Source: a virus
Taxonomy: Duplodnaviria; Caudoviricetes
Length of the DNA stretch: 40,863 bases
IMG/VR virus record: IMGVR_UViG_3300030207_002573
Location: 1-40,863 of that record
Strand: one strand, 5' to 3'
In this document: piece after piece, positions 1-38,149 of the stretch
Numbering within the stretch: the stretch's first letter is position 1
How the letters are laid out: every line of letters starts with the position of its first letter
Translations under genes and position numbers: made by a program
Notes under the pieces: generated by a model
Told to the model about the DNA's origin: nothing
What the model saw: only the letters and a program-made list of their open reading frames with translations
Database searches by the model: none

Positions 1-543
1 ATGGTTTTAGCCAAAGCTACTCATAAACCAAAACTTGAAATAGTAGCTAACCCACGAACAGAAAAGAACATCACACCTAAACAAGAAGAGTTTGCAAGAT
101 TGTATGTATGTGAGGACATCAGCCAAACAGAGGCCGCAGTCAGGGCAGGTTACTCTGTAAAGTCGGCACATGCCATAGCATCACAACTGCTAAATGGTCA
201 ACGCTACCCACACGTAGTAGCGAGGATAGGCGAACTTAAAAGTGAACTTGCTAAAAAATATGAAGTTACTTTTGAGGGCCACGTCAAAAAATTGGCAGAG
301 ATACGTGATGCAGCTATGACTGGTGGTAACTTCGCCGCAGCTGTCGCCGCTGAAAAATCACGAGGCCAAGCCGCAGGCCTCTATATTGACCGTAAAGAAA
401 TACTCCACGGTAAAATAGACCAGATGGATAAAGAGCAAGTAATGAAAGAAATACAAAAGCTACAAAAAGAGTTCCCTGCTCTTGCCGCTGTTGCTGATGG
501 CAATGTGGTAATAGAAGGACAGGTTAAAGATAAGACAAAATAA
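1..543 (+). CDS. terS: Terminase small subunit
   Basis: N-terminal HTH pattern 'ITPKQEEFARLY...SQTEAAVRAGYSVKSAHAIASQLL' typical of TerS; lies upstream of terL. Start is at the window edge. Confidence 0.85.
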   Translation: MVLAKATHKPKLEIVANPRTEKNITPKQEEFARLYVCEDISQTEAAVRAGYSVKSAHAIASQLLNGQRYPHVVARIGELKSELAKKYEVTFEGHVKKLAEIRDAAMTGGNFAAAVAAEKSRGQAAGLYIDRKEILHGKIDQMDKEQVMKEIQKLQKEFPALAAVADGNVVIEGQVKDKTK

Positions 544-577
544 GATATAAAAGCACTTACTCTTTGTACCTCCCAAG

Positions 578-597
578 GTTACTATAACTATAGTAAC
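578..597. promoter_or_regulatory. Perfect inverted repeat GTTACTATA-ac-TATAGTAAC, operator-like
   Basis: Seen directly between terS and ORF 623; overlaps -10-like hexamers TATAAC/TATAGT. Confidence 0.4.
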
Positions 598-622
598 AAT
601 TAACCGAGAAAGGGTTAGACAA

Positions 623-1084
623 ATGGGTACAAGATGTAATATTGTTTTAGAGTGTGGTGACCACGTTAAGTATATTTACAGACATTATGATGGTTACCCT
701 AGTAGCGTAATACCTGAGCTTAAAAAATATGTTGAGGCTATACGGTGGTACGTTGATCACCGCTGTGCTAAACACTCGCGCCAATCCCACTACACAATTG
801 AGTATTTTGCAAAAATGCTAGACTTTTATGCAGACCTTCTTGTGAAGCATTCTGCTTGGGATCAAGCGATGCCAAGGGTTGCAGAAATTGACAATGTGCA
901 AATACCCTACGAGCCTATGCAGTTAGAGGGTAAGTATGAAATTACTACTGGTATACATGGTGATATTGATTGGCTGTATATTATTACCATTGACCAAACG
1001 ACGCACAAGGTTTGTAGCATAAGTGAGTATGACCGTGATAGTTATAACCAATATATGCCAGAGCTTAATTTGAGGAGAGCATGA
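623..1084 (+). CDS. Conserved hypothetical phage protein (YxHxDGYP motif)
   Basis: MGTRCNI...YIYRHYDGYPS N-terminus recurs in phage proteins of unknown function; RBS-like GAAAGGG upstream. Confidence 0.7.
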   Translation: MGTRCNIVLECGDHVKYIYRHYDGYPSSVIPELKKYVEAIRWYVDHRCAKHSRQSHYTIEYFAKMLDFYADLLVKHSAWDQAMPRVAEIDNVQIPYEPMQLEGKYEITTGIHGDIDWLYIITIDQTTHKVCSISEYDRDSYNQYMPELNLRRA

Positions 1085-1383
1085 TGCGTAAGTTAATTGA
1101 GCATGATGCGTTTTTTGATAGTTGCCGTGGCATAGCGGAGGGTGTATTTCCCCATACAAACCCCAGCGGAGTCGTGCATTATTACTATGCAGAAACGCAG
1201 TTAAAGTTGAGCTGTTACAGATCTGTTGATGTGTATGCTGAAAATGGTGCTTTGTGTGGTGCTGACCTTATACGTTACGTTACGTATGGACGCCAAGCAT
1301 CACCATTGCGTAGCCATGTTATGGAATGTCCTGACTGTGCCAAATTGGTAGAGTCAGCAAGGGTAGGTGCAAGCCATGACTAG
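1081..1383 (+). CDS. Hypothetical protein with C-terminal CxxC
   Basis: ATGA overlap with the upstream ORF, AGGAG RBS, CPDC motif. Confidence 0.55.
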   Translation: MMRKLIEHDAFFDSCRGIAEGVFPHTNPSGVVHYYYAETQLKLSCYRSVDVYAENGALCGADLIRYVTYGRQASPLRSHVMECPDCAKLVESARVGASHD

Positions 1384-1849
1384 CAAGCCAGAGAGTAAAC
1401 TTTGGCATAAGTTAAGGGAGGGGACTCAAGACCTAGGCGTGTTTTGGACACGCTTAGAGTCTTGGGCGACTCCAGGGATACCCGACTTACATGGCATAAT
1501 TGACGGAACAAGTTTTTGGCTTGAACTTAAAGTCCACAGGTTAAAGTCACTAAAAAGTATCGCACTGCGTCCGCATCAAATTGCGTGGCAAACCAGATAT
1601 TTTATGAATAAAGGTCAAGTTTACAACTTGGTTCATCATCCTTCGTCCTCTACCCTGAATATATTTGGGGGAGAAAGAGCGATTAAGATGGGAGAGACCA
1701 AGGGCCATGCACCATTAGAACCTGACTGGTGTTGTGGTTCTCCGTTTGATTGGCATGGTGTCATCAATCATATTCTGTCATCATCGTCTCATCTCAAATC
1801 AAATCAAGATTACGACGGAGAGACGATTACGACGGAGAGAGGACAATAG
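1367..1849 (+). CDS. PD-(D/E)xK nuclease (VRR-NUC / Holliday junction resolvase-like); probable start at ATG 1376
   Basis: Motifs 'PESKLW', 'PGIPDL', 'FWLELK', 'LRPHQIAW'. The C-terminal tail runs into the repeat tract. Confidence 0.75.
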   Translation: MQAMTSKPESKLWHKLREGTQDLGVFWTRLESWATPGIPDLHGIIDGTSFWLELKVHRLKSLKSIALRPHQIAWQTRYFMNKGQVYNLVHHPSSSTLNIFGGERAIKMGETKGHAPLEPDWCCGSPFDWHGVINHILSSSSHLKSNQDYDGETITTERGQ

Positions 1850-2178
1850 ATAATGATTGATGATGATATATATATTGATCGTTATTGATCGTTATTGATC
1901 AACCTTGATCGGGGACGATTAATAATTGACGAGAGCAAAAAATACAACAAACGACAACAACAGACCATTGTGGCAGTGTATACAATAACCATTGTTTAAC
2001 TAGCAAAGGTATTGACCAATGGTATTTGTGATTTGTCTTATTGTCGTTTGTTTATTGGCAATGTTTTACGATTATAGTTGAGATTAAGATTACGACGAGA
2101 GAGAGCGTGTGTGTATGCGAGGAGTATTGATATAGGTACGTATACATATATCACGTCAAATCAAATCAAATCTTGTCG
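1760..2178. repeat. GA/TC-rich short repeat arrays
   Basis: TCAAA x3 (1794-1807 and 2156-2172); GATTACGACGGAGAGA x2 (1808-1823, 1825-1840) with a variant at 2088-2105; TTGATC x4 at exact 10-bp spacing (1875-1910). Confidence 0.9.
2019..2081 (+). CDS. Putative 20-aa hydrophobic peptide MVFVICLIVVCLLAMFYDYS
   Basis: Translated by hand; AAAGGT RBS-like sequence upstream resembles those of neighbouring genes. Confidence 0.3.
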   Translation: MVFVICLIVVCLLAMFYDYS

Positions 2179-2204
2179 CGGGCAAGGGCCAAAAATGCCG
2201 TGAT

Positions 2205-2264
2205 AAAAAAAGTTTAAAAAAATGCATTATTGGGGTTTACATATAATGTATTGCACATTATATT
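2205..2264 (+). promoter_or_regulatory. Sigma70-type promoter with A-tract UP element
   Basis: -35 TTTACA (2236-2241), 17-bp spacer, -10 TATATT (2259-2264), A-tracts at 2205-2222. Confidence 0.65.
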
Positions 2265-2327
2265 AATAAGCATGGCAATAACGCCACAACGGGCTTAGCG
2301 GCCCACCATTAAAAAGGGTTTAAAAAA

Positions 2328-2837
2328 ATGGTAAAAGCAAACACAAAGTTTTTAAAAACTTTACAGCCAACTACAGCGGCAACTAACACAGTAACAACTG
2401 GCGCGGTTTTAAAAGGCCCATTGTTAACTAGCACAGGCGCATTTAACTACGCAGCTGTGCAAACGTTTATTAATACCAAAGCTGGGGGCAATGCCAACAA
2501 CGTTGCTATAGTGCCATGTAAAGGCGTTACCTTTGCCAGCTTTACAATGGGTAAAGGCGGTAAGGCCCCATGTAAAACACTAGGCGGTTTTAACGCCCAG
2601 CAATATGGCGTTAGGCAAACCATGCTATGGCATGCGTTAAACGGCCAGCTTACTTTAGGCGCTTGGTTAAACGCCTGTAAAAGCAAGGGGGCGCTTGGTA
2701 TACCCAGCGGTGGGCAAAGCGCAACCAAGCCAATAGTTTTGTTGGCATTGCTTAACGGTGGGTTTAGCCGCAACGCTAACACATGGGGCGTGCCACAGGT
2801 ACAGCTAGTAGTTAAACCCCAAACCGTTAAAGGCTAA
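2328..2837 (+). CDS. Hypothetical basic protein with no Asp/Glu, encoded in a GA/TC-free island
   Basis: 169-aa ORF with its own promoter, AAAGGG RBS and terminator. No family recognised. Confidence 0.8.
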   Translation: MVKANTKFLKTLQPTTAATNTVTTGAVLKGPLLTSTGAFNYAAVQTFINTKAGGNANNVAIVPCKGVTFASFTMGKGGKAPCKTLGGFNAQQYGVRQTMLWHALNGQLTLGAWLNACKSKGALGIPSGGQSATKPIVLLALLNGGFSRNANTWGVPQVQLVVKPQTVKG

Positions 2838-2846
2838 CGGTTTTTG

Positions 2847-2875
2847 TGGGGGGCAAAATTGCCCCCCATTTTTTT
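2847..2875 (+). terminator. Rho-independent terminator
   Basis: TGGGGGGC-aaaatt-GCCCCCCA stem followed by T7, about 10 bp after the stop codon. Confidence 0.85.
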
Positions 2876-3147
2876 GTGCCTATTTAGTTGCCTAGGCAAC
2901 TATTAGCTAAGCAACTAATTTGCCAAGGTACCCCTAAATTTTGGCGCGGCAAAAACCATGCCAACTTTTGCGGCCCCCCTGAGACAAAAATGGTGGTATA
3001 CGTAGCACCATTTACCCTGTTTCGCACGATTCAACATTATCCAAAAACATATTACTAGAAAGTCAAGTCCGTTGACCTACCCCCCCTTTTTGTTAGTATT
3101 GATTATAGGTTCATTGTCCTTGAAAAATTTTCGATATATAAGAAAAT

Positions 3148-4614
3148 ATGGTTAGTGAGTTGGAGCATGTTCCCGAAGAACATTTAAAAAAGTTTGCTAC
3201 GTTATTAGACCGAGCGAGTTATTTAACTAAAGCAGAGTCAGCGCGTAGTGATTTTATGACGTATTGCCAGATGGTGTGGCCTGAGTTTGTGAATGGACGC
3301 CACCATGGAATAATGGCGGAGAAGTTTAACCGATTAGCTTCTGGTGATTTAAAACGGTTAATTGTGAATATGCCCCCCCGACATACGAAGAGTGAGTTTG
3401 GTAGTTATTTATTGCCTTCGTGGTTAATGGGTAGGAAGCCAACATTAAAGATTATGCAGACAACGCATACGGCAGAGTTGGCATTTAGGTTTGGACGTAA
3501 AACAAGAAATTTAATGAATACTGATGAGTATCGAGGTATCTTTGATGTTGAGTTACGAGCAGATAGCCAAGCTGCGGGTAGATGGGAGACATCAAAGGGT
3601 GGAGAATATTTTGCGGCTGGAGTTGGTGGAGCGGTGACGGGCCGTGGTGCGGATTTATTAATTATTGATGACCCGCATTCTGAACAAGATGCGTTATCGC
3701 CTACAGCATTAGAACATGCTTATGAGTGGTATACATCTGGCCCCCGTCAGCGATTACAGCCTGGAGGGAGTATAGTAATTATTATGACTCGTTGGGCTGA
3801 GAATGATTTGACGGGTAAGCTGTTGCGTCAGCAGGCGCGAGATATATTAGCAGATAAGTGGGAAGTTGTAGAGTTTCCAGCATTAATGCCAGAGTCGAAT
3901 GAACCATTATGGCCTGAGTATTGGAAGAAAGAAGATTTATTAGCGGTTAAGGGAAGTTTATCGGTAGGAAAATGGGAAGCGCAGTGGCAGCAAAACCCGA
4001 CGAGTGAGGGAGCTGCGATACTTAAACGTGATTGGTGGCAGGAGTGGGAGAAAGAAGAGTTACCGCATTTAGATTATGTTATGCAATCTTATGATACAGC
4101 TTATAGTAAAAAGGAGTCAGCGGATTACAGTGCTATAACAACGTGGGGAGTTTTTTATCCGTATGATGGAGCGCCAGCAAATATATTACTTGTTGATGCC
4201 CAGAGGGGTAGGTGGGATTTTCCTGAGTTACGACGTAAAGCATTAGAGGAATATAAGTATTGGGATCCGGAATGTGTATTAATTGAGGCAAAAGCTTCGG
4301 GTATGCCATTAACTCAAGAATTGCGTAATATGGGTATTCCGGTGCAGAATTATAGTCCTTCTAGAGGTAATGATAAATATACGCGAGTAAATTCTATTGC
4401 ACCATTACTCGAATCAGGATTAGTATGGGCACCAGATACTCGTTGGTCGGAAGAGGTGATTGAGGAGTGTGCGGCGTTTCCTGCTGGAGAGCATGATGAT
4501 TATGTTGATACGGTAACACAGGCGTTGCGAAGATTTAGAGAGGGTGGTTTTATACAGCACCCAGAAGATTATGAAGATGAAGAGGCACCCCCAAGAGTAA
4601 GGAGTTACTATTAA
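3148..4614 (+). CDS. terL: Terminase large subunit
   Basis: Walker A variant 'MPPRHTKS', Walker B 'LLIIDDPH', 'IIMTRW', nuclease motifs 'SYDTA' and 'HDDYVD'. Confidence 0.95.
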   Translation: MVSELEHVPEEHLKKFATLLDRASYLTKAESARSDFMTYCQMVWPEFVNGRHHGIMAEKFNRLASGDLKRLIVNMPPRHTKSEFGSYLLPSWLMGRKPTLKIMQTTHTAELAFRFGRKTRNLMNTDEYRGIFDVELRADSQAAGRWETSKGGEYFAAGVGGAVTGRGADLLIIDDPHSEQDALSPTALEHAYEWYTSGPRQRLQPGGSIVIIMTRWAENDLTGKLLRQQARDILADKWEVVEFPALMPESNEPLWPEYWKKEDLLAVKGSLSVGKWEAQWQQNPTSEGAAILKRDWWQEWEKEELPHLDYVMQSYDTAYSKKESADYSAITTWGVFYPYDGAPANILLVDAQRGRWDFPELRRKALEEYKYWDPECVLIEAKASGMPLTQELRNMGIPVQNYSPSRGNDKYTRVNSIAPLLESGLVWAPDTRWSEEVIEECAAFPAGEHDDYVDTVTQALRRFREGGFIQHPEDYEDEEAPPRVRSYY

Positions 4615-6989
4615 TGGCATTATCTCCTAAAGCAAACAATGTAGATCGCGCTTTAATACAGGCACCAGTTTCTGATTTAAGTTTTGAAGAAGAGGATTTG
4701 CTGGGCCAAGAGAATGATTTTTTCCAAGGTGAGATAGAAATCGTAGAAGATGATGATGGCGGTGTAGAAATAACCGCAGGTATGGATGAGCAGGTATTTG
4801 GTGAAGAGCCTGCAAACTTTTACGATAATCTGGCTGAAAATTTACAGGATTCTACACTTGCAGAAATAGCGAGTTATGTAACTTCTACAGTAGAAGAAGA
4901 TAAAAGTAGCCGTAGTGATTGGGAAGATACTTATATTAAGGGATTAGATTTGCTTGGTATGCGGTATGAAACACGTACTGAGCCGTTTGAGGGTGCTACT
5001 GGTGTAATACATCCGTTATTAAATGAGGCAATTACACAATTTCAGGCATCAGCATATAAAGAAATGTTGCCAAGCCAAGGGCCAGTACGAGCAAATATTA
5101 TTGGTATACCAACACCCGAAACAGAGCAACAGGCCCAACGAGTACAAACATACATGAATTACCAGCTTATGTATGAGATGGAAGAGTATGAGCCTGAGTT
5201 TGACCAGATGTTATATTACTTAGGGTTAGCAGGGAGTGCATTTAAGAAAATTTACCGCGATGAAATGCTAGATAGGCCAGTAAGTAAGTTTGTGCCTGCC
5301 GAAGATGTGATTGTTCCGTACATTGCAACTGATTTACAATCTGCAGAGCGCATAACTCATGTGATAAAAATGTCAAAAAATGAGTTAAAAAAGCTACAGC
5401 TATCTGGTTTTTACATGGAAATGGATAGTGAGAGCAGTGCTTCGCCAGAAACAGATGATGTACAGTCCGCTTATGATGATATTGAGGGTATAAGCCCTTC
5501 ATATAATGATGAACAATTTACATTGTTTGAATGTCATTGTTTCTTAGATATAGAAGAGTACGCAGATAAGCGTGAAGATGGCGAAAGTTCTGGTTTAAAA
5601 CTGCCATATATAGCAACTGTATGCAAAGATACAGGCGAAGTATTGTCAATTAGGCGTAATTACCTACAAAATGACCCAAATAAAGATAAAATTCAGCATT
5701 TTGTACAATATAAATTTACTCCAGGATTAGGTTTTTACGGTTTTGGGCTTATACATCTGCTTGGTAACTTATCTAGAACGGCAACAGCTAATTTACGACA
5801 GTTAATTGACTCTGGTACCTTGGCAAATATGCCAGCAGGATTTAAAGCTCGTGGTTTGCGGATTGCAGATGAGCAAAGTCCGCTAAATCCAGGAGAATTT
5901 AGGGATGTTGATGTTCCAGGAGGTGATTTAAAAGCATCTTTAATGCCATTACCGTATAAAGAGCCTAGTGGAACGTTGTTTCAGTTAATGGGTTTTGTTG
6001 TTGATGCCGCACAACGGTTTATTGGCACGACTGATATGGGTGTTGGTCAGGGTAATCAAGAAATGCCTGTTGGAACAACTATTGCGTTACTTGAAAGAGG
6101 TAGCCGTATAGTTTCTGCAGTGCATAAACGATTACATGCGTCATTAAAACAAGAATTAAAAATGTTAGGTGCTTTATTTGCAGAGGATCCACGGCCTTAC
6201 CCTTATAATGCAGGAGCTGATGCACAAATAAAAAGTTCGGATTTTGATGGTAGGATAGATATCCTGCCAGTAAGTGATCCAAATATTTTTAGTATGTCGC
6301 AAAGGGTTGTATTAGCACAAGAACAACTCAAATTAGCGGTTGCTGCGCCCGATATGCACAATTTGTATGAAGCATATCACCGAGTGTATGAGGCTTTGGG
6401 TGTAAATAATATTGACCAAATATTAAAACCTGAACCTGAGCAACGCCCTATGGATCCAACAATGGAGAATATGGAAACGAGTAATGTGGCTAATGGGCAG
6501 GGTAAATTACAAGCCTACCCAGAACAAGACCATGATGCTCATATTGCAGTGCATTTAGCATATATCAATAGTAGAGTTGCTCAAATGCAAGCACCTGTAG
6601 CGATATTATTAGAAAAACATATTTACGAACATCTTGGTTTAAAAGCTAGGATAGTTGTACAGCAACAAATGCAGGGACAACAAGTTTCACCAGAACAAGT
6701 AGAGGGTATGATTGCTCAAACGCAGGCACAATTAATTGCACAGTTCCAGCAATCGATGCCACCAGCACAAGAGGAAGATCCACTTGTCAAGATCAAGCAA
6801 CAAGAGTTAGCATTGCGTGAACAGGAAATGTTGGCTGACCAGCAAACAGACCAGAGGAAGTTAGCTCTGGATCAACAACGGCAACAGCAACAATTCCAAT
6901 TAGGCCAAGATAGAATAAACAGTACAGAGGATATTGCACAAATGAGAGCTAGGATTGCTTTGCAAAGAAATGCAAACACTAGAGGTTAA
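4614..6989 (+). CDS. Portal protein
   Basis: 791 aa directly after terL; 'HPLLNEA', 'GSAFKKIY', 'GFYGFGL' motifs; Gln-rich coiled C-terminus like P22-type barrel portals. Confidence 0.85.
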   Translation: MALSPKANNVDRALIQAPVSDLSFEEEDLLGQENDFFQGEIEIVEDDDGGVEITAGMDEQVFGEEPANFYDNLAENLQDSTLAEIASYVTSTVEEDKSSRSDWEDTYIKGLDLLGMRYETRTEPFEGATGVIHPLLNEAITQFQASAYKEMLPSQGPVRANIIGIPTPETEQQAQRVQTYMNYQLMYEMEEYEPEFDQMLYYLGLAGSAFKKIYRDEMLDRPVSKFVPAEDVIVPYIATDLQSAERITHVIKMSKNELKKLQLSGFYMEMDSESSASPETDDVQSAYDDIEGISPSYNDEQFTLFECHCFLDIEEYADKREDGESSGLKLPYIATVCKDTGEVLSIRRNYLQNDPNKDKIQHFVQYKFTPGLGFYGFGLIHLLGNLSRTATANLRQLIDSGTLANMPAGFKARGLRIADEQSPLNPGEFRDVDVPGGDLKASLMPLPYKEPSGTLFQLMGFVVDAAQRFIGTTDMGVGQGNQEMPVGTTIALLERGSRIVSAVHKRLHASLKQELKMLGALFAEDPRPYPYNAGADAQIKSSDFDGRIDILPVSDPNIFSMSQRVVLAQEQLKLAVAAPDMHNLYEAYHRVYEALGVNNIDQILKPEPEQRPMDPTMENMETSNVANGQGKLQAYPEQDHDAHIAVHLAYINSRVAQMQAPVAILLEKHIYEHLGLKARIVVQQQMQGQQVSPEQVEGMIAQTQAQLIAQFQQSMPPAQEEDPLVKIKQQELALREQEMLADQQTDQRKLALDQQRQQQQFQLGQDRINSTEDIAQMRARIALQRNANTRG

Positions 6990-35700: not shown

Positions 35701-35978
35701 AAGAGATGGAAAAGGCTAGACCACTTGCTACCTTCCCTAGTTCGGGACAATCATTTGGTGTAAACCCAGAAACAAACCAGAACATTGAGACGACACCTAT
35801 TGCTCCTGCATCCCCACCACCATCAATGGATTTAAGTCAGATCGCTCCTCCGCCTCCTATCGCACCCACAGGAGGAAGCCAAGTTGATGTTGCATCACTG
35901 TTTCCATTTGATCCAACCTCAGCAGCAATACAAAAGCGACAGCAACAGCAACAAGGTTTAGGCTCATTAATGATCTAA
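32730..35978 (+). CDS. Putative large internal virion protein
   Basis: 1082 aa, last gene of the morphogenesis operon; 'SLFPFDP' C-terminal motif. Confidence 0.6.
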   Translation: MSLDDSLDERMIQAVSGPEIDEVEVLKSAQDITKVGDPVEGASLGFEGEAQPSRVTGLGDGLEPVFGDSILTTAITGFNRGLANLVDPVIYNAAVALRKIGEATGSPMLANIQPERNQMARVFASGDFETQNIMSNVLGIPIQYGEGADIGVTPEEGLASEFVYGGGKFLGEGAPVAMGLQTAANLATKSAGLLTPKVVPVEGGTAANVVDDILRMQAQAPGTVAATEAGISGLAGGVTETADSPTLGMTAAFLPSAIPGIVKNLPVVRGGTGAIGWLRQRTPGKISDLRDVATGAKSATEGEGGQLLVNKAQRMIQEQLNLNPEQSKAAVERFQEIVAKIPELETMAPGQVFDNQALIKTFQDAVLDAPNEQIPALNALLEGYVSGATRFKGTIGVEGTDTGVTGNNILVMDSARKTFNLGVKKEADDIVDEEAFLTREASKIERTGSQRQTERLKLQASLAKRVEDAREAVEKEKIRLGIVQERRPIKASGKREKVLTRPDDLVEPAAVLALQQRVQREILPREGTEAFSFDKLPASIKSIAQWDSSKDFTFRDWLLAREEVSNAISKGSTYGDAQLPTLMAYRDMLEDFAITGFNNLGPKYKEFIDFAKTNLYDPFERSLIMGVTRRDQKADRFITQGEQITKTFLKQEPEILRRFVKTVGTDAPEVNDLKNVLLDDLYDSAYVGTNGKWDDAKINKWMGDNKNYLEELPGTGDNNFFQDLTNTQRLLQQSLLRRKQATQRKEEIQKSLLGKFFERETKQGTLQPEEDFLTQLVMRPTKEGGQRTMVKTRNDFLASEEGKSLGKTGAENVFRRTIFEKLDEQMNIMQDPEKFKAWMQQDKNTQLLKDAGFSDSHMKDLYLLADASERINTIPILEFKGLNSSGIIAKIAEALGTSPAAVSTRVLAVKENRISPRTAFIYLASRAIGAQNQIRMNALMREAITDPQLARMLTTELPEANPVGRIPGPIQRKVNNYLIGSGIEAVEQIDQEMEKARPLATFPSSGQSFGVNPETNQNIETTPIAPASPPPSMDLSQIAPPPPIAPTGGSQVDVASLFPFDPTSAAIQKRQQQQQGLGSLMI

Positions 35979-36646
35979 AGTAAAAATGCTTGTGTATAAT
36001 TACTGAGTTGTTGTTTAGATATATTGTAATATTCCTCAACTAACTCAATACCTGTAAACTCCATACCAAATTGTTTGCAGACAACGCCTGTTGTCCCTGT
36101 ACCCATAAATGGGTCAAGTACATTTTGGTTTGGATGACAGAACGAACGTAAAATAAACTCTACTGCTTTCGGGTGCATTACTGCTCTATGTTGTTCTTTG
36201 TAAGGGTTCTCTGAATATACAGGTGTACAAAAATGATTTTTTGTATACGTATCATTACCTTTAAGTGCGGTATTATTATTACTCAATACTAAAATATATT
36301 CGTAAGCATTAGTAACTGCATCACCACCTGCTGGAGTTGGATTAGATTTATTCCAAATTATTGTTTCTATTATTTGTTCTGCAAAATGCCCAAACAACTT
36401 ATAGAGTTCAACACGATTGTAAAAGTTTTTCTGCACATTATAAAAGACATTACCTTTACAAACTCGTAAACATTGTTCTATAGATTCTACAAGGAAATCA
36501 AAATAATCATCACTAATATCTGTAAACGAAGCGTACTTATCATCCCTCTTTCTATTGTAAGGAGGCGATGTAAACACTGTATCAAACTGTTCATTTGCAA
36601 ATGTTTTAATTACAACAGTGCTATCGCCTAGGATTAAATTATCCAC
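35975..36646 (-). CDS. Orphan beta-class amino DNA methyltransferase (N4-C or N6-A)
   Basis: Catalytic 'TSPPYN' precedes SAM-binding 'VLDPFMGTGTTG'; no cognate endonuclease adjacent. Confidence 0.9.
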   Translation of the reverse strand: MDNLILGDSTVVIKTFANEQFDTVFTSPPYNRKRDDKYASFTDISDDYFDFLVESIEQCLRVCKGNVFYNVQKNFYNRVELYKLFGHFAEQIIETIIWNKSNPTPAGGDAVTNAYEYILVLSNNNTALKGNDTYTKNHFCTPVYSENPYKEQHRAVMHPKAVEFILRSFCHPNQNVLDPFMGTGTTGVVCKQFGMEFTGIELVEEYYNISKQQLSNYTQAFLL

Positions 36647-38073: not shown

Positions 38074-38149
38074 TTTACCCTCTTTCTATTGGGAATAAAT
38101 ACATTTTAAACTTAAATAAAAACACGAGCAATAAAAGGTTTATCAAGTA

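Follow-up and report, generated by a model that had tools for sequence, protein, structure and literature searches.

The window analyzed here, a viral contig of 40,863 nt (40.9 kb), encodes both terminase subunits, portal, GroES, capsid, SNF2 helicase and primase. The small terminase subunit (terS, 1..543, plus strand) was assigned by family searches. The large subunit (terL, 3148..4614, plus strand), 62% identical to that of HTVC027P by sequence comparison, fixes both the lineage and the position of the gene of interest. The identity of terL to the Pelagibacter phages HTVC023P and HTVC027P is 58–62%, and, judged by terL, capsid, GroES, primase and SNF2 helicase, the phage is an HTVC023P-type podophage. 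Between terS with its nuclease-like ORF and terL lies gene B (2328..2837, plus strand), identified by its ORF, a structural model and family searches; it codes for a basic protein of 169 aa that lacks Asp and Glu and has a predicted alpha/beta fold. This position agrees with an earlier sequence-only reading, which described B as isolated in the packaging module. The cultured phages HTVC023P and HTVC027P have neither a gene of the B family nor the island described below.

Gene B is embedded in a stretch of 779 bp (2203..2981) where, by a dinucleotide count over the window, GA and TC are both absent, so that the island holds on both strands. At the window rate of 0.098 per bp, approximately 76 GA/TC steps would be expected there. 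The second-longest GA/TC gap in the window is 64 bp, and no other dinucleotide has a gap of comparable length in it. Given the B protein and the codon usage of the window, the probability of finding no GA/TC is 6e-17; the probability of finding no Asp or Glu in 168 aa is 1.6e-10. The island covers the whole transcription unit and is repeated in all 14 close loci with a B protein, each without GA/TC in the matching region and with GA/TC-free runs of 311–862 bp. Avoidance of UV dimers was ruled out as the cause, since TT/AA is enriched inside the island.

The sequence-only reading had also claimed that B possesses its own promoter and terminator, and a consensus scan predicts both inside the island. 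The predicted sigma70 promoter (2236..2264, plus strand; TTTACA-17-TATATT, 10/12) is conserved in relatives, and its match alone is weak, because the scan yielded 6 such sites, while shuffled sequences gave 4.5. Upstream of it, sequence and promoter alignment reveal a UP-element-like A-tract (2203..2235, plus strand) that lacks the phased GA seen in promoters of a twin gene, A. The ribosome-binding site AAGGGT (2314..2319, plus strand) is free of GA, whereas sequence comparison with relatives shows that the twin-A genes mostly use AGAAAGGAG. An intrinsic terminator is predicted at 2846..2876 (plus strand), its core at 2846–2869 in the consensus scan. An Rfam scan gave nothing real. On the left, the island adjoins a conserved GA/TC-rich tract (1789..2202) of GATTACGACGGAGAGA, TATTGATCG and TCAAA repeats with variable copy number; the tract contains an inverted repeat at 1946–2052.

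The translation of the ORF contains no Asp and no Glu, all six Ser codons are AGC, all seven Phe codons are TTT, GGA is missing, Arg is encoded only by AGG or CGC, and the stop codon is TAA; the composition reported earlier (no acidic residues, AGC for Ser, TTT for Phe, no GGA) is thus correct in every point. With a net charge of +16 and pI of 10.5, B is not an acidic DNA mimic of the Ocr type. The question of whether homologs also lack acidic residues can be answered positively for 37 of the 39 close homologs; one of the other two has 1 Glu, and one has 9 acidic residues. Homologs with Asp or Glu, named earlier together with a structural role as grounds for giving up the proposal, therefore do exist, with no sign that any of them serves a structural function.

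B belongs to a gene pair, with A of normal composition upstream and the purged B downstream, before terL. All 14 records that are at least 90% complete hold 2–3 copies of the family. A profile search yielded 49 matches with 0 to 25 acidic residues, of which 46 were kept after three long repeat proteins (P0063, P0077, P0085) had been dropped; alignment A4 was built without these three and two short fragments or duplicates. Medians are 12 D+E and 18 K+R in A, and 2 D+E and 12 K+R in B, so the median net charge is alike (+7 and +9), and the conserved Asp columns of A frequently contain Asn in B. Thus, the missing acidic residues are a cost rather than a function. The earlier suggestion that the basic charge of B is special does not hold, because the D/E-bearing twin is equally basic. 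The loss of Asp and Glu would be the mere price of banning GAN codons.

The two members of the pair differ sharply in dinucleotide content. In rows sharing less than 88% identity, we observed avoidable sense GA 40 times against 542 expected in 41 B rows and 331 times against 527 in 31 A rows; for sense TC the ratios are 313/896 and 832/716, respectively. The roles of A and B were taken from locus order, and single-match loci with at most 8 acidic residues were added as B-like, so that the following set of 57 B-like rows is partly circular: 39 are low in both GA and TC, another 11 only in sense GA, none only in TC, and 7 in neither. This nested order indicates that the first step to be lost is TC on the template strand (or GA in the mRNA). 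The deficit in 33 fully purged B genes starts approximately 100–125 nt upstream of the ATG and continues for approximately 75 nt beyond the stop codon. In the mostly untranscribed segment 50–100 nt upstream of the ATG we counted 19 GA+TC against 154 expected, and 15 against 271 within 75 nt downstream of the stop codon. Because the purge reaches untranscribed promoter DNA and affects both strands, the constraint acts on DNA, and the earlier proposal that the amino-acid alphabet of B was set by a DNA-level constraint is supported.

The same data bear on an explanation by selection on the message, in which a CmdT-like toxin of the host, aimed at mRNA, would favor a GA-free transcript for the counter-protein. 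The mRNA ADP-ribosyltransferase of the CmdTAC system modifies the A of GA, the dinucleotide purged here, in single-stranded RNA, according to the accessible text of its description (PMC11618068). Such a toxin would fit the early loss of sense GA and a ribosome-binding site that avoids it. It cannot account for the loss of sense TC, the exact complement of GA, which is also zero in most lineages, nor for the purge of untranscribed DNA. The genome-wide deficit that follows a phage module and the phasing of GA in promoters, both considered below, are likewise unexplained, and we regard a toxin of this kind as a long shot.

The extent of the purge varies between closely related phages. In locus L154, the flanks are 92–96% identical and terL is identical, yet the B allele has 8 acidic residues, 10 GA and 18 TC; its avoidable sense GA is still low (2/16). 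In genomes G002 and G022, the module is 92–99% identical, and B is fully purged in G002 and partly purged in G022. Hence possession of the module does not by itself dictate a full purge, which, to judge from these sequences, is optional or host-dependent. A quick family tree based on few columns suggests that purging arose or deepened several times. The alleles L154:3040-3570 and L127:14297-14827 are swapped, approximately 48% identical and D/E-bearing, in phages that are otherwise near-identical. Contigs of one other run cover the flanks and not the B allele of the window. G010 has B in duplicate; the second copy is 93% identical and probably reflects a strain bubble.

A candidate source of the constraint is encoded by the relatives themselves. 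In 12 relatives with full sequence, a module beside PolA includes a TS-like protein (PF00303) that resembles dUMP hydroxymethylases, a 5-hmdU DNA kinase (PF18723; E 2e-50 with the representative), an HD nucleotidase and, depending on the genome, a GT4-like glycosyltransferase or an unannotated protein of 334 aa. The kinase is present in all 14 near-complete carriers of the family, and kinase and B/A family are both absent from all nine complete module-less relatives (four complete metagenomic HTVC023P-like records and five cultured or curated relatives). In a quick terL tree the carriers form one clade plus G015, so this co-occurrence represents one or two events. The window ends earlier, in the primase, and our phage would possess the module by analogy with relatives whose terL is 94–95% identical. 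A module of TS and aG/PT-PPlase1 is present in clades V, VIII and IX of HTVC023P-type phages, according to the available part of PMC9599517. In 5 of 12 genomes, the kinase is followed directly by the 334-aa protein c50 (L161:438-1439) in place of the GT4-like glycosyltransferase. This protein is a candidate new thymine-modifying enzyme; genomes with c50 sometimes carry an FkbM methyltransferase. The type of the last enzyme (c47 or c50) was tried as a sorter of purged and unpurged B and does not sort them.

Context-specific hypermodification of thymidine, starting from 5-hmdU, is described for M6/YuA, ViI, phiW-14 and SH-Ab 15599 in the accessible parts of PMC6449724, PMC13458397 and PMC8989533. 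The relatives of our phage resemble the M6/YuA type in the set of TS-like protein, PF18723 kinase, HD nucleotidase and glycosyltransferase by PolA. The modification falls on TG or TC in the available text of PMC6449724 and PMC13458397, with TG preferred in the case characterized in the latter. Here, unlike in these phages, only TC is depleted and TG is not: the whole-sequence observed-to-expected ratio of TC is 0.74–0.94 in 13 module-clade sequences and 0.95–1.01 in seven module-less ones, although the two ranges overlap more after codon correction. The marked base is thus probably the T of TC, with the TC-only specificity read off the same depletion that it explains. YuA and PhiJL001 have the kinase and, unlike this lineage, neither a member of the B/A family nor a GA/TC-free island.

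Other enzymes could in principle mark or cut these steps. The sequence-only reading had suggested testing B against restriction, type IV and DarTG systems; the phage's own thymine hypermodification is the likelier agent, and we consider it the probable cause of the island. In the phages iggy and CAjan, a GA motif is marked by DpdA with a GA-specific deazaguanine (PMC10484667, PMC7544227, in the parts accessible). Unlike in those phages, a Pfam scan found no DpdA, FolE or QueC/D/E among the 47 ORFs of the window and 92 proteins of relatives, which represent most of the 156 listed non-window clusters, and the relatives have a thymidine pathway instead. A gene for an N6/N4 DNA methyltransferase lies at 35975–36646 on the minus strand; our own gene caller gave short split ORFs for it in G001 and G002. 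This enzyme was rejected as the cause because it occurs in no more than 3 of 13 sequences, which cannot explain a family-wide island.

The right edge of the island is formed by a conserved cis element (2927..2982) that consists of GGTACC, approximately 47 nt, and a C-run followed by GA. GGTACC and the C-run with GA are present in 33/52 and 38/52 B rows, compared to 1/31 and 2/31 A rows, and the element is a candidate packaging or late-promoter site. GGTACC occurs only once in the 60-kb G001 and in G002. The position between terS and terL, the basic N-terminal tails of the proteins and the flanking repeats could mean that B and A are DNA-binding proteins of a packaging or chromatin type, and that terminase or an origin needs plain DNA. 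We find this highly improbable, given that the island edges track the transcription unit and shift with gene length, and that module-less relatives package their DNA without any B/A protein.

The leading DNA of T5 and T7 avoids restriction sites, and by the same logic the island could be the genome end that enters first, cleared of the many host restriction or phosphorothioate-type sites with GA/TC in them. Its location between terS and terL, beside an element unique in G001 and G002, would suit such a role, and the avoidance of CCGG, GGCC and GCGC points to restriction pressure on these phages. A site-specific enzyme would not demand the loss of all GA/TC in every context, however, and sites of the CCGG type contain neither dinucleotide. 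Moreover, GGTACC also precedes terL in module-less relatives, which have the element but no island. No pile-up of contig ends was seen near B. An entering end is therefore a very improbable cause. CCGG is scarce in the window (7 against 42 expected), and GGCC, GCGC or CCGG are almost missing in some relatives (G004, G005, G009); this avoidance appears to be a separate host restriction pressure. One contig from another run, possibly identical with the source sample, covers 1873–3672 with 0 differences. Contigs over 1–5000 are deeper at approximately 1600–3100 in four runs, a contig depth that cannot rank parts of the region, so that a terminal repeat may or may not lie there.

A further difference between the twins lies in their promoters. 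With promoters placed by our own weight matrix, some of them visibly miscalled, GA is found at positions -3, -13 and -23 from the -35 hexamer in 15, 18 and 14 of 30 A promoters, respectively; these offsets upstream of -35 are one helical turn apart. The corresponding numbers for 53 B promoters are 0, 2 and 3, and plain A-tracts are observed there instead. Among other intergenic promoters, GA at -13 is found in 30/79 from the module clade versus 1/54 from module-less phages (p=2e-7), and at least two phased GA in 15/79 versus 0/54 (p 4e-4), the lineages being not independent in either comparison; GA at other phases of those promoters is seen 0–3 times. In a count free of any promoter model, GA-N11-TTRTC occurs 306 times in module loci, against 147–193 at other spacings, and 59 times in module-less loci, against 56–103. 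Phased GA upstream of -35 in module-carrying phages is described here for the first time.

In the window itself, the promoter scan predicts a phage-type promoter with GA at -23 and -13 (534..585, plus strand) upstream of the ORF 623–1084, and another with GA at -13 (38103..38144, minus strand) upstream of the SNF2 helicase gene. Promoters with phased GA also precede replication and module genes (c5, c29, c36), whose transcription has to start from incoming DNA. Because GA is avoided elsewhere and kept in phase at promoters, its most natural interpretation is a binding site, and we infer that the binder is B/A. An element at a fixed distance from a sigma70 promoter, missing from the promoter of B, is what a MotA-like activator would use. 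In YuA, annotated repeats (L198:7722-7749 and four more) are called sigma70 promoters that need a phage cofactor, a possible parallel in another T-hypermodified phage. The protein c29 (L158:10511-11191) is an unknown protein with a conserved C-terminal helical domain, encoded just 5' of the kinase in 11 of 12 genomes; its homology to B was rejected (hhalign probability under 1%).

A natural explanation for these observations, to which we assign a probability of roughly 0.5, is that the island is an unmarked starter unit and that B is a DNA-binding activator of mark-bearing promoters. The T of TC would be marked after replication, and marks on the template strand would hinder the host RNA polymerase most, so that sense GA is purged first and sense TC second. 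If template marks do hinder the host polymerase, B is readable straight from virion DNA: being unmarked and preceded by a plain sigma70 promoter, its unit would be the first to be transcribed. B, and then A, would bind the phased marked TC steps and recruit or permit the sigma70 holoenzyme; B would activate A and the replication genes, and A, which is under no coding ban, would take over. Given modification by the phage as the cause of the island, the activator role of B is fairly likely. The repeat tract at 1789–2202 would be densely marked, and an origin, a roadblock or a reader sink are ideas for its role.

The effect of marks on transcription is partly documented. Treatment with 5-HMUDK decreases transcription of hmU DNA by E. 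coli RNA polymerase to 10% (PMC6457204), and T7 RNA polymerase is inhibited more by bulky or charged marks on the template strand, while glucosyl-hmC DNA remains transcribed (PMC11550810), as stated in the accessible parts of these reports. The available sections of the reports on M6/YuA-type phages and the HTVC023P module mention neither a purged gene unit, as seen here, nor a mark-keyed promoter. The proposed logic resembles that of T4 MotA, in that a small early DNA-binding protein would open modified phage promoters to the sigma70 holoenzyme. MotA activates middle promoters on glucosyl-hmC DNA; to our knowledge, the early genes of T4 are not purged of the modified context. The differences are that no sequence or fold match of B to MotA was found, MotA being absent from the PDB profile and fold-search listings, that the element here is GA at 10-bp steps, and that the activator would come as twins.

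The earlier description of B as an anti-defence or takeover factor fares less well in its anti-defence part, because the phased promoter GA favors a role in transcription. One could still accept the phage's own TC mark but see in B a shield that coats marked sites or blocks modification-dependent nucleases, with the island left unmarked so that it stays uncut until B is made. The purge on both strands in 39/57 B-like rows is compatible with this, the swapping of B alleles between near-identical phages resembles host-driven selection, and a domain of the family occurs in a bacterial nuclease of the modification-dependent type near Dsr1. A shield leaves unexplained both the conserved, helically phased GA in the promoters of A and other genes and the order in which sense GA is lost first. 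Searches of PHROGs, Pfam, NCBIfam and PADLOC revealed no match of B to any known defence or anti-defence protein. A shield is therefore unlikely, and activation of marked promoters is preferred.

More generally, no match to the B/A family was found in Pfam, PHROGs, NCBIfam, PADLOC or PDB sequences, cultured phages contain no sequence match to B, and an Atlas search returned only unnamed viral clusters and a low lead to DUF3489 (0.76). A weak search for longer fused forms found none. Models of B (pLDDT 75–76) contain helices at residues 95–105, 110–118 and 136–143 and a strand at 158–162. The best hits of a fold search are weak and winged-helix-like (Z 4.3–4.7), and many of its rows are what we take to be winged-helix or RRE domains; a Foldseek search of the model against PDB and BFVD returned nothing. 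The predicted fold thus weakly resembles a winged helix or an RRE domain, and DNA binding by B is plausible on the model. Its expression as the first gene is plausible as well.

A separate lead on the family comes from bacteria. The sole match in GTDB genomes is a protein of 401 aa from Microvirga sesbaniae (P0206, L365:9824-11029). This HNH nuclease, a relative of VcaM4I (6YEX, E 1.5e-38), contains the family domain inside its N-terminal sensor region (E 1e-28). An IS and a Dsr1-like SIR2 gene are found close to its gene, in a genome without a 5-hmdU kinase. VcaM4I itself is an EVE-HNH protein (PDB 6YEX, PMC7897488), and DpnI-type enzymes have winged-helix sensors (PMC11037411); in the accessible parts of both reports, these are modification-dependent restriction enzymes that couple a sensor to a nuclease. 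The phage proteins B and A, in contrast, stand alone and have no nuclease part. The fusion, a single case found in 1 of 401 genomes of its class, fits a family domain that reads modified DNA, and P0206 is a candidate nuclease against hypermodified-thymine phages. Combining all these elements, we tentatively propose something like a boot sector: TC might be marked genome-wide, phased marked promoters might need a reader, the unmarked twin might start the cascade, and some bacteria might have captured the reader domain to direct a nuclease to marked phage DNA.

For most hypermodified phages, it is still a question how transcription by the host RNA polymerase can begin on so heavily modified a template; a testable answer is offered here for one of the phage groups abundant in the ocean. 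The open articles searched described no phage gene purged of the context of its own modification and no mark-keyed promoters. Only rarely does a DNA-level ban strip a conserved protein of two amino acids, as it does at this locus, where the normal twin serves as a control, and the target context of an unstudied modification becomes readable from sequence alone. The family also offers a domain that is a candidate reader of hypermodified thymine and could help to map such marks. It appears to be wider than the profile search reached: the distant B-like genes L351:8527-9090, L352:389-952 and L354:237-809, missed by the profile, are D/E-free and lie in GA/TC-free islands of 697–787 bp.
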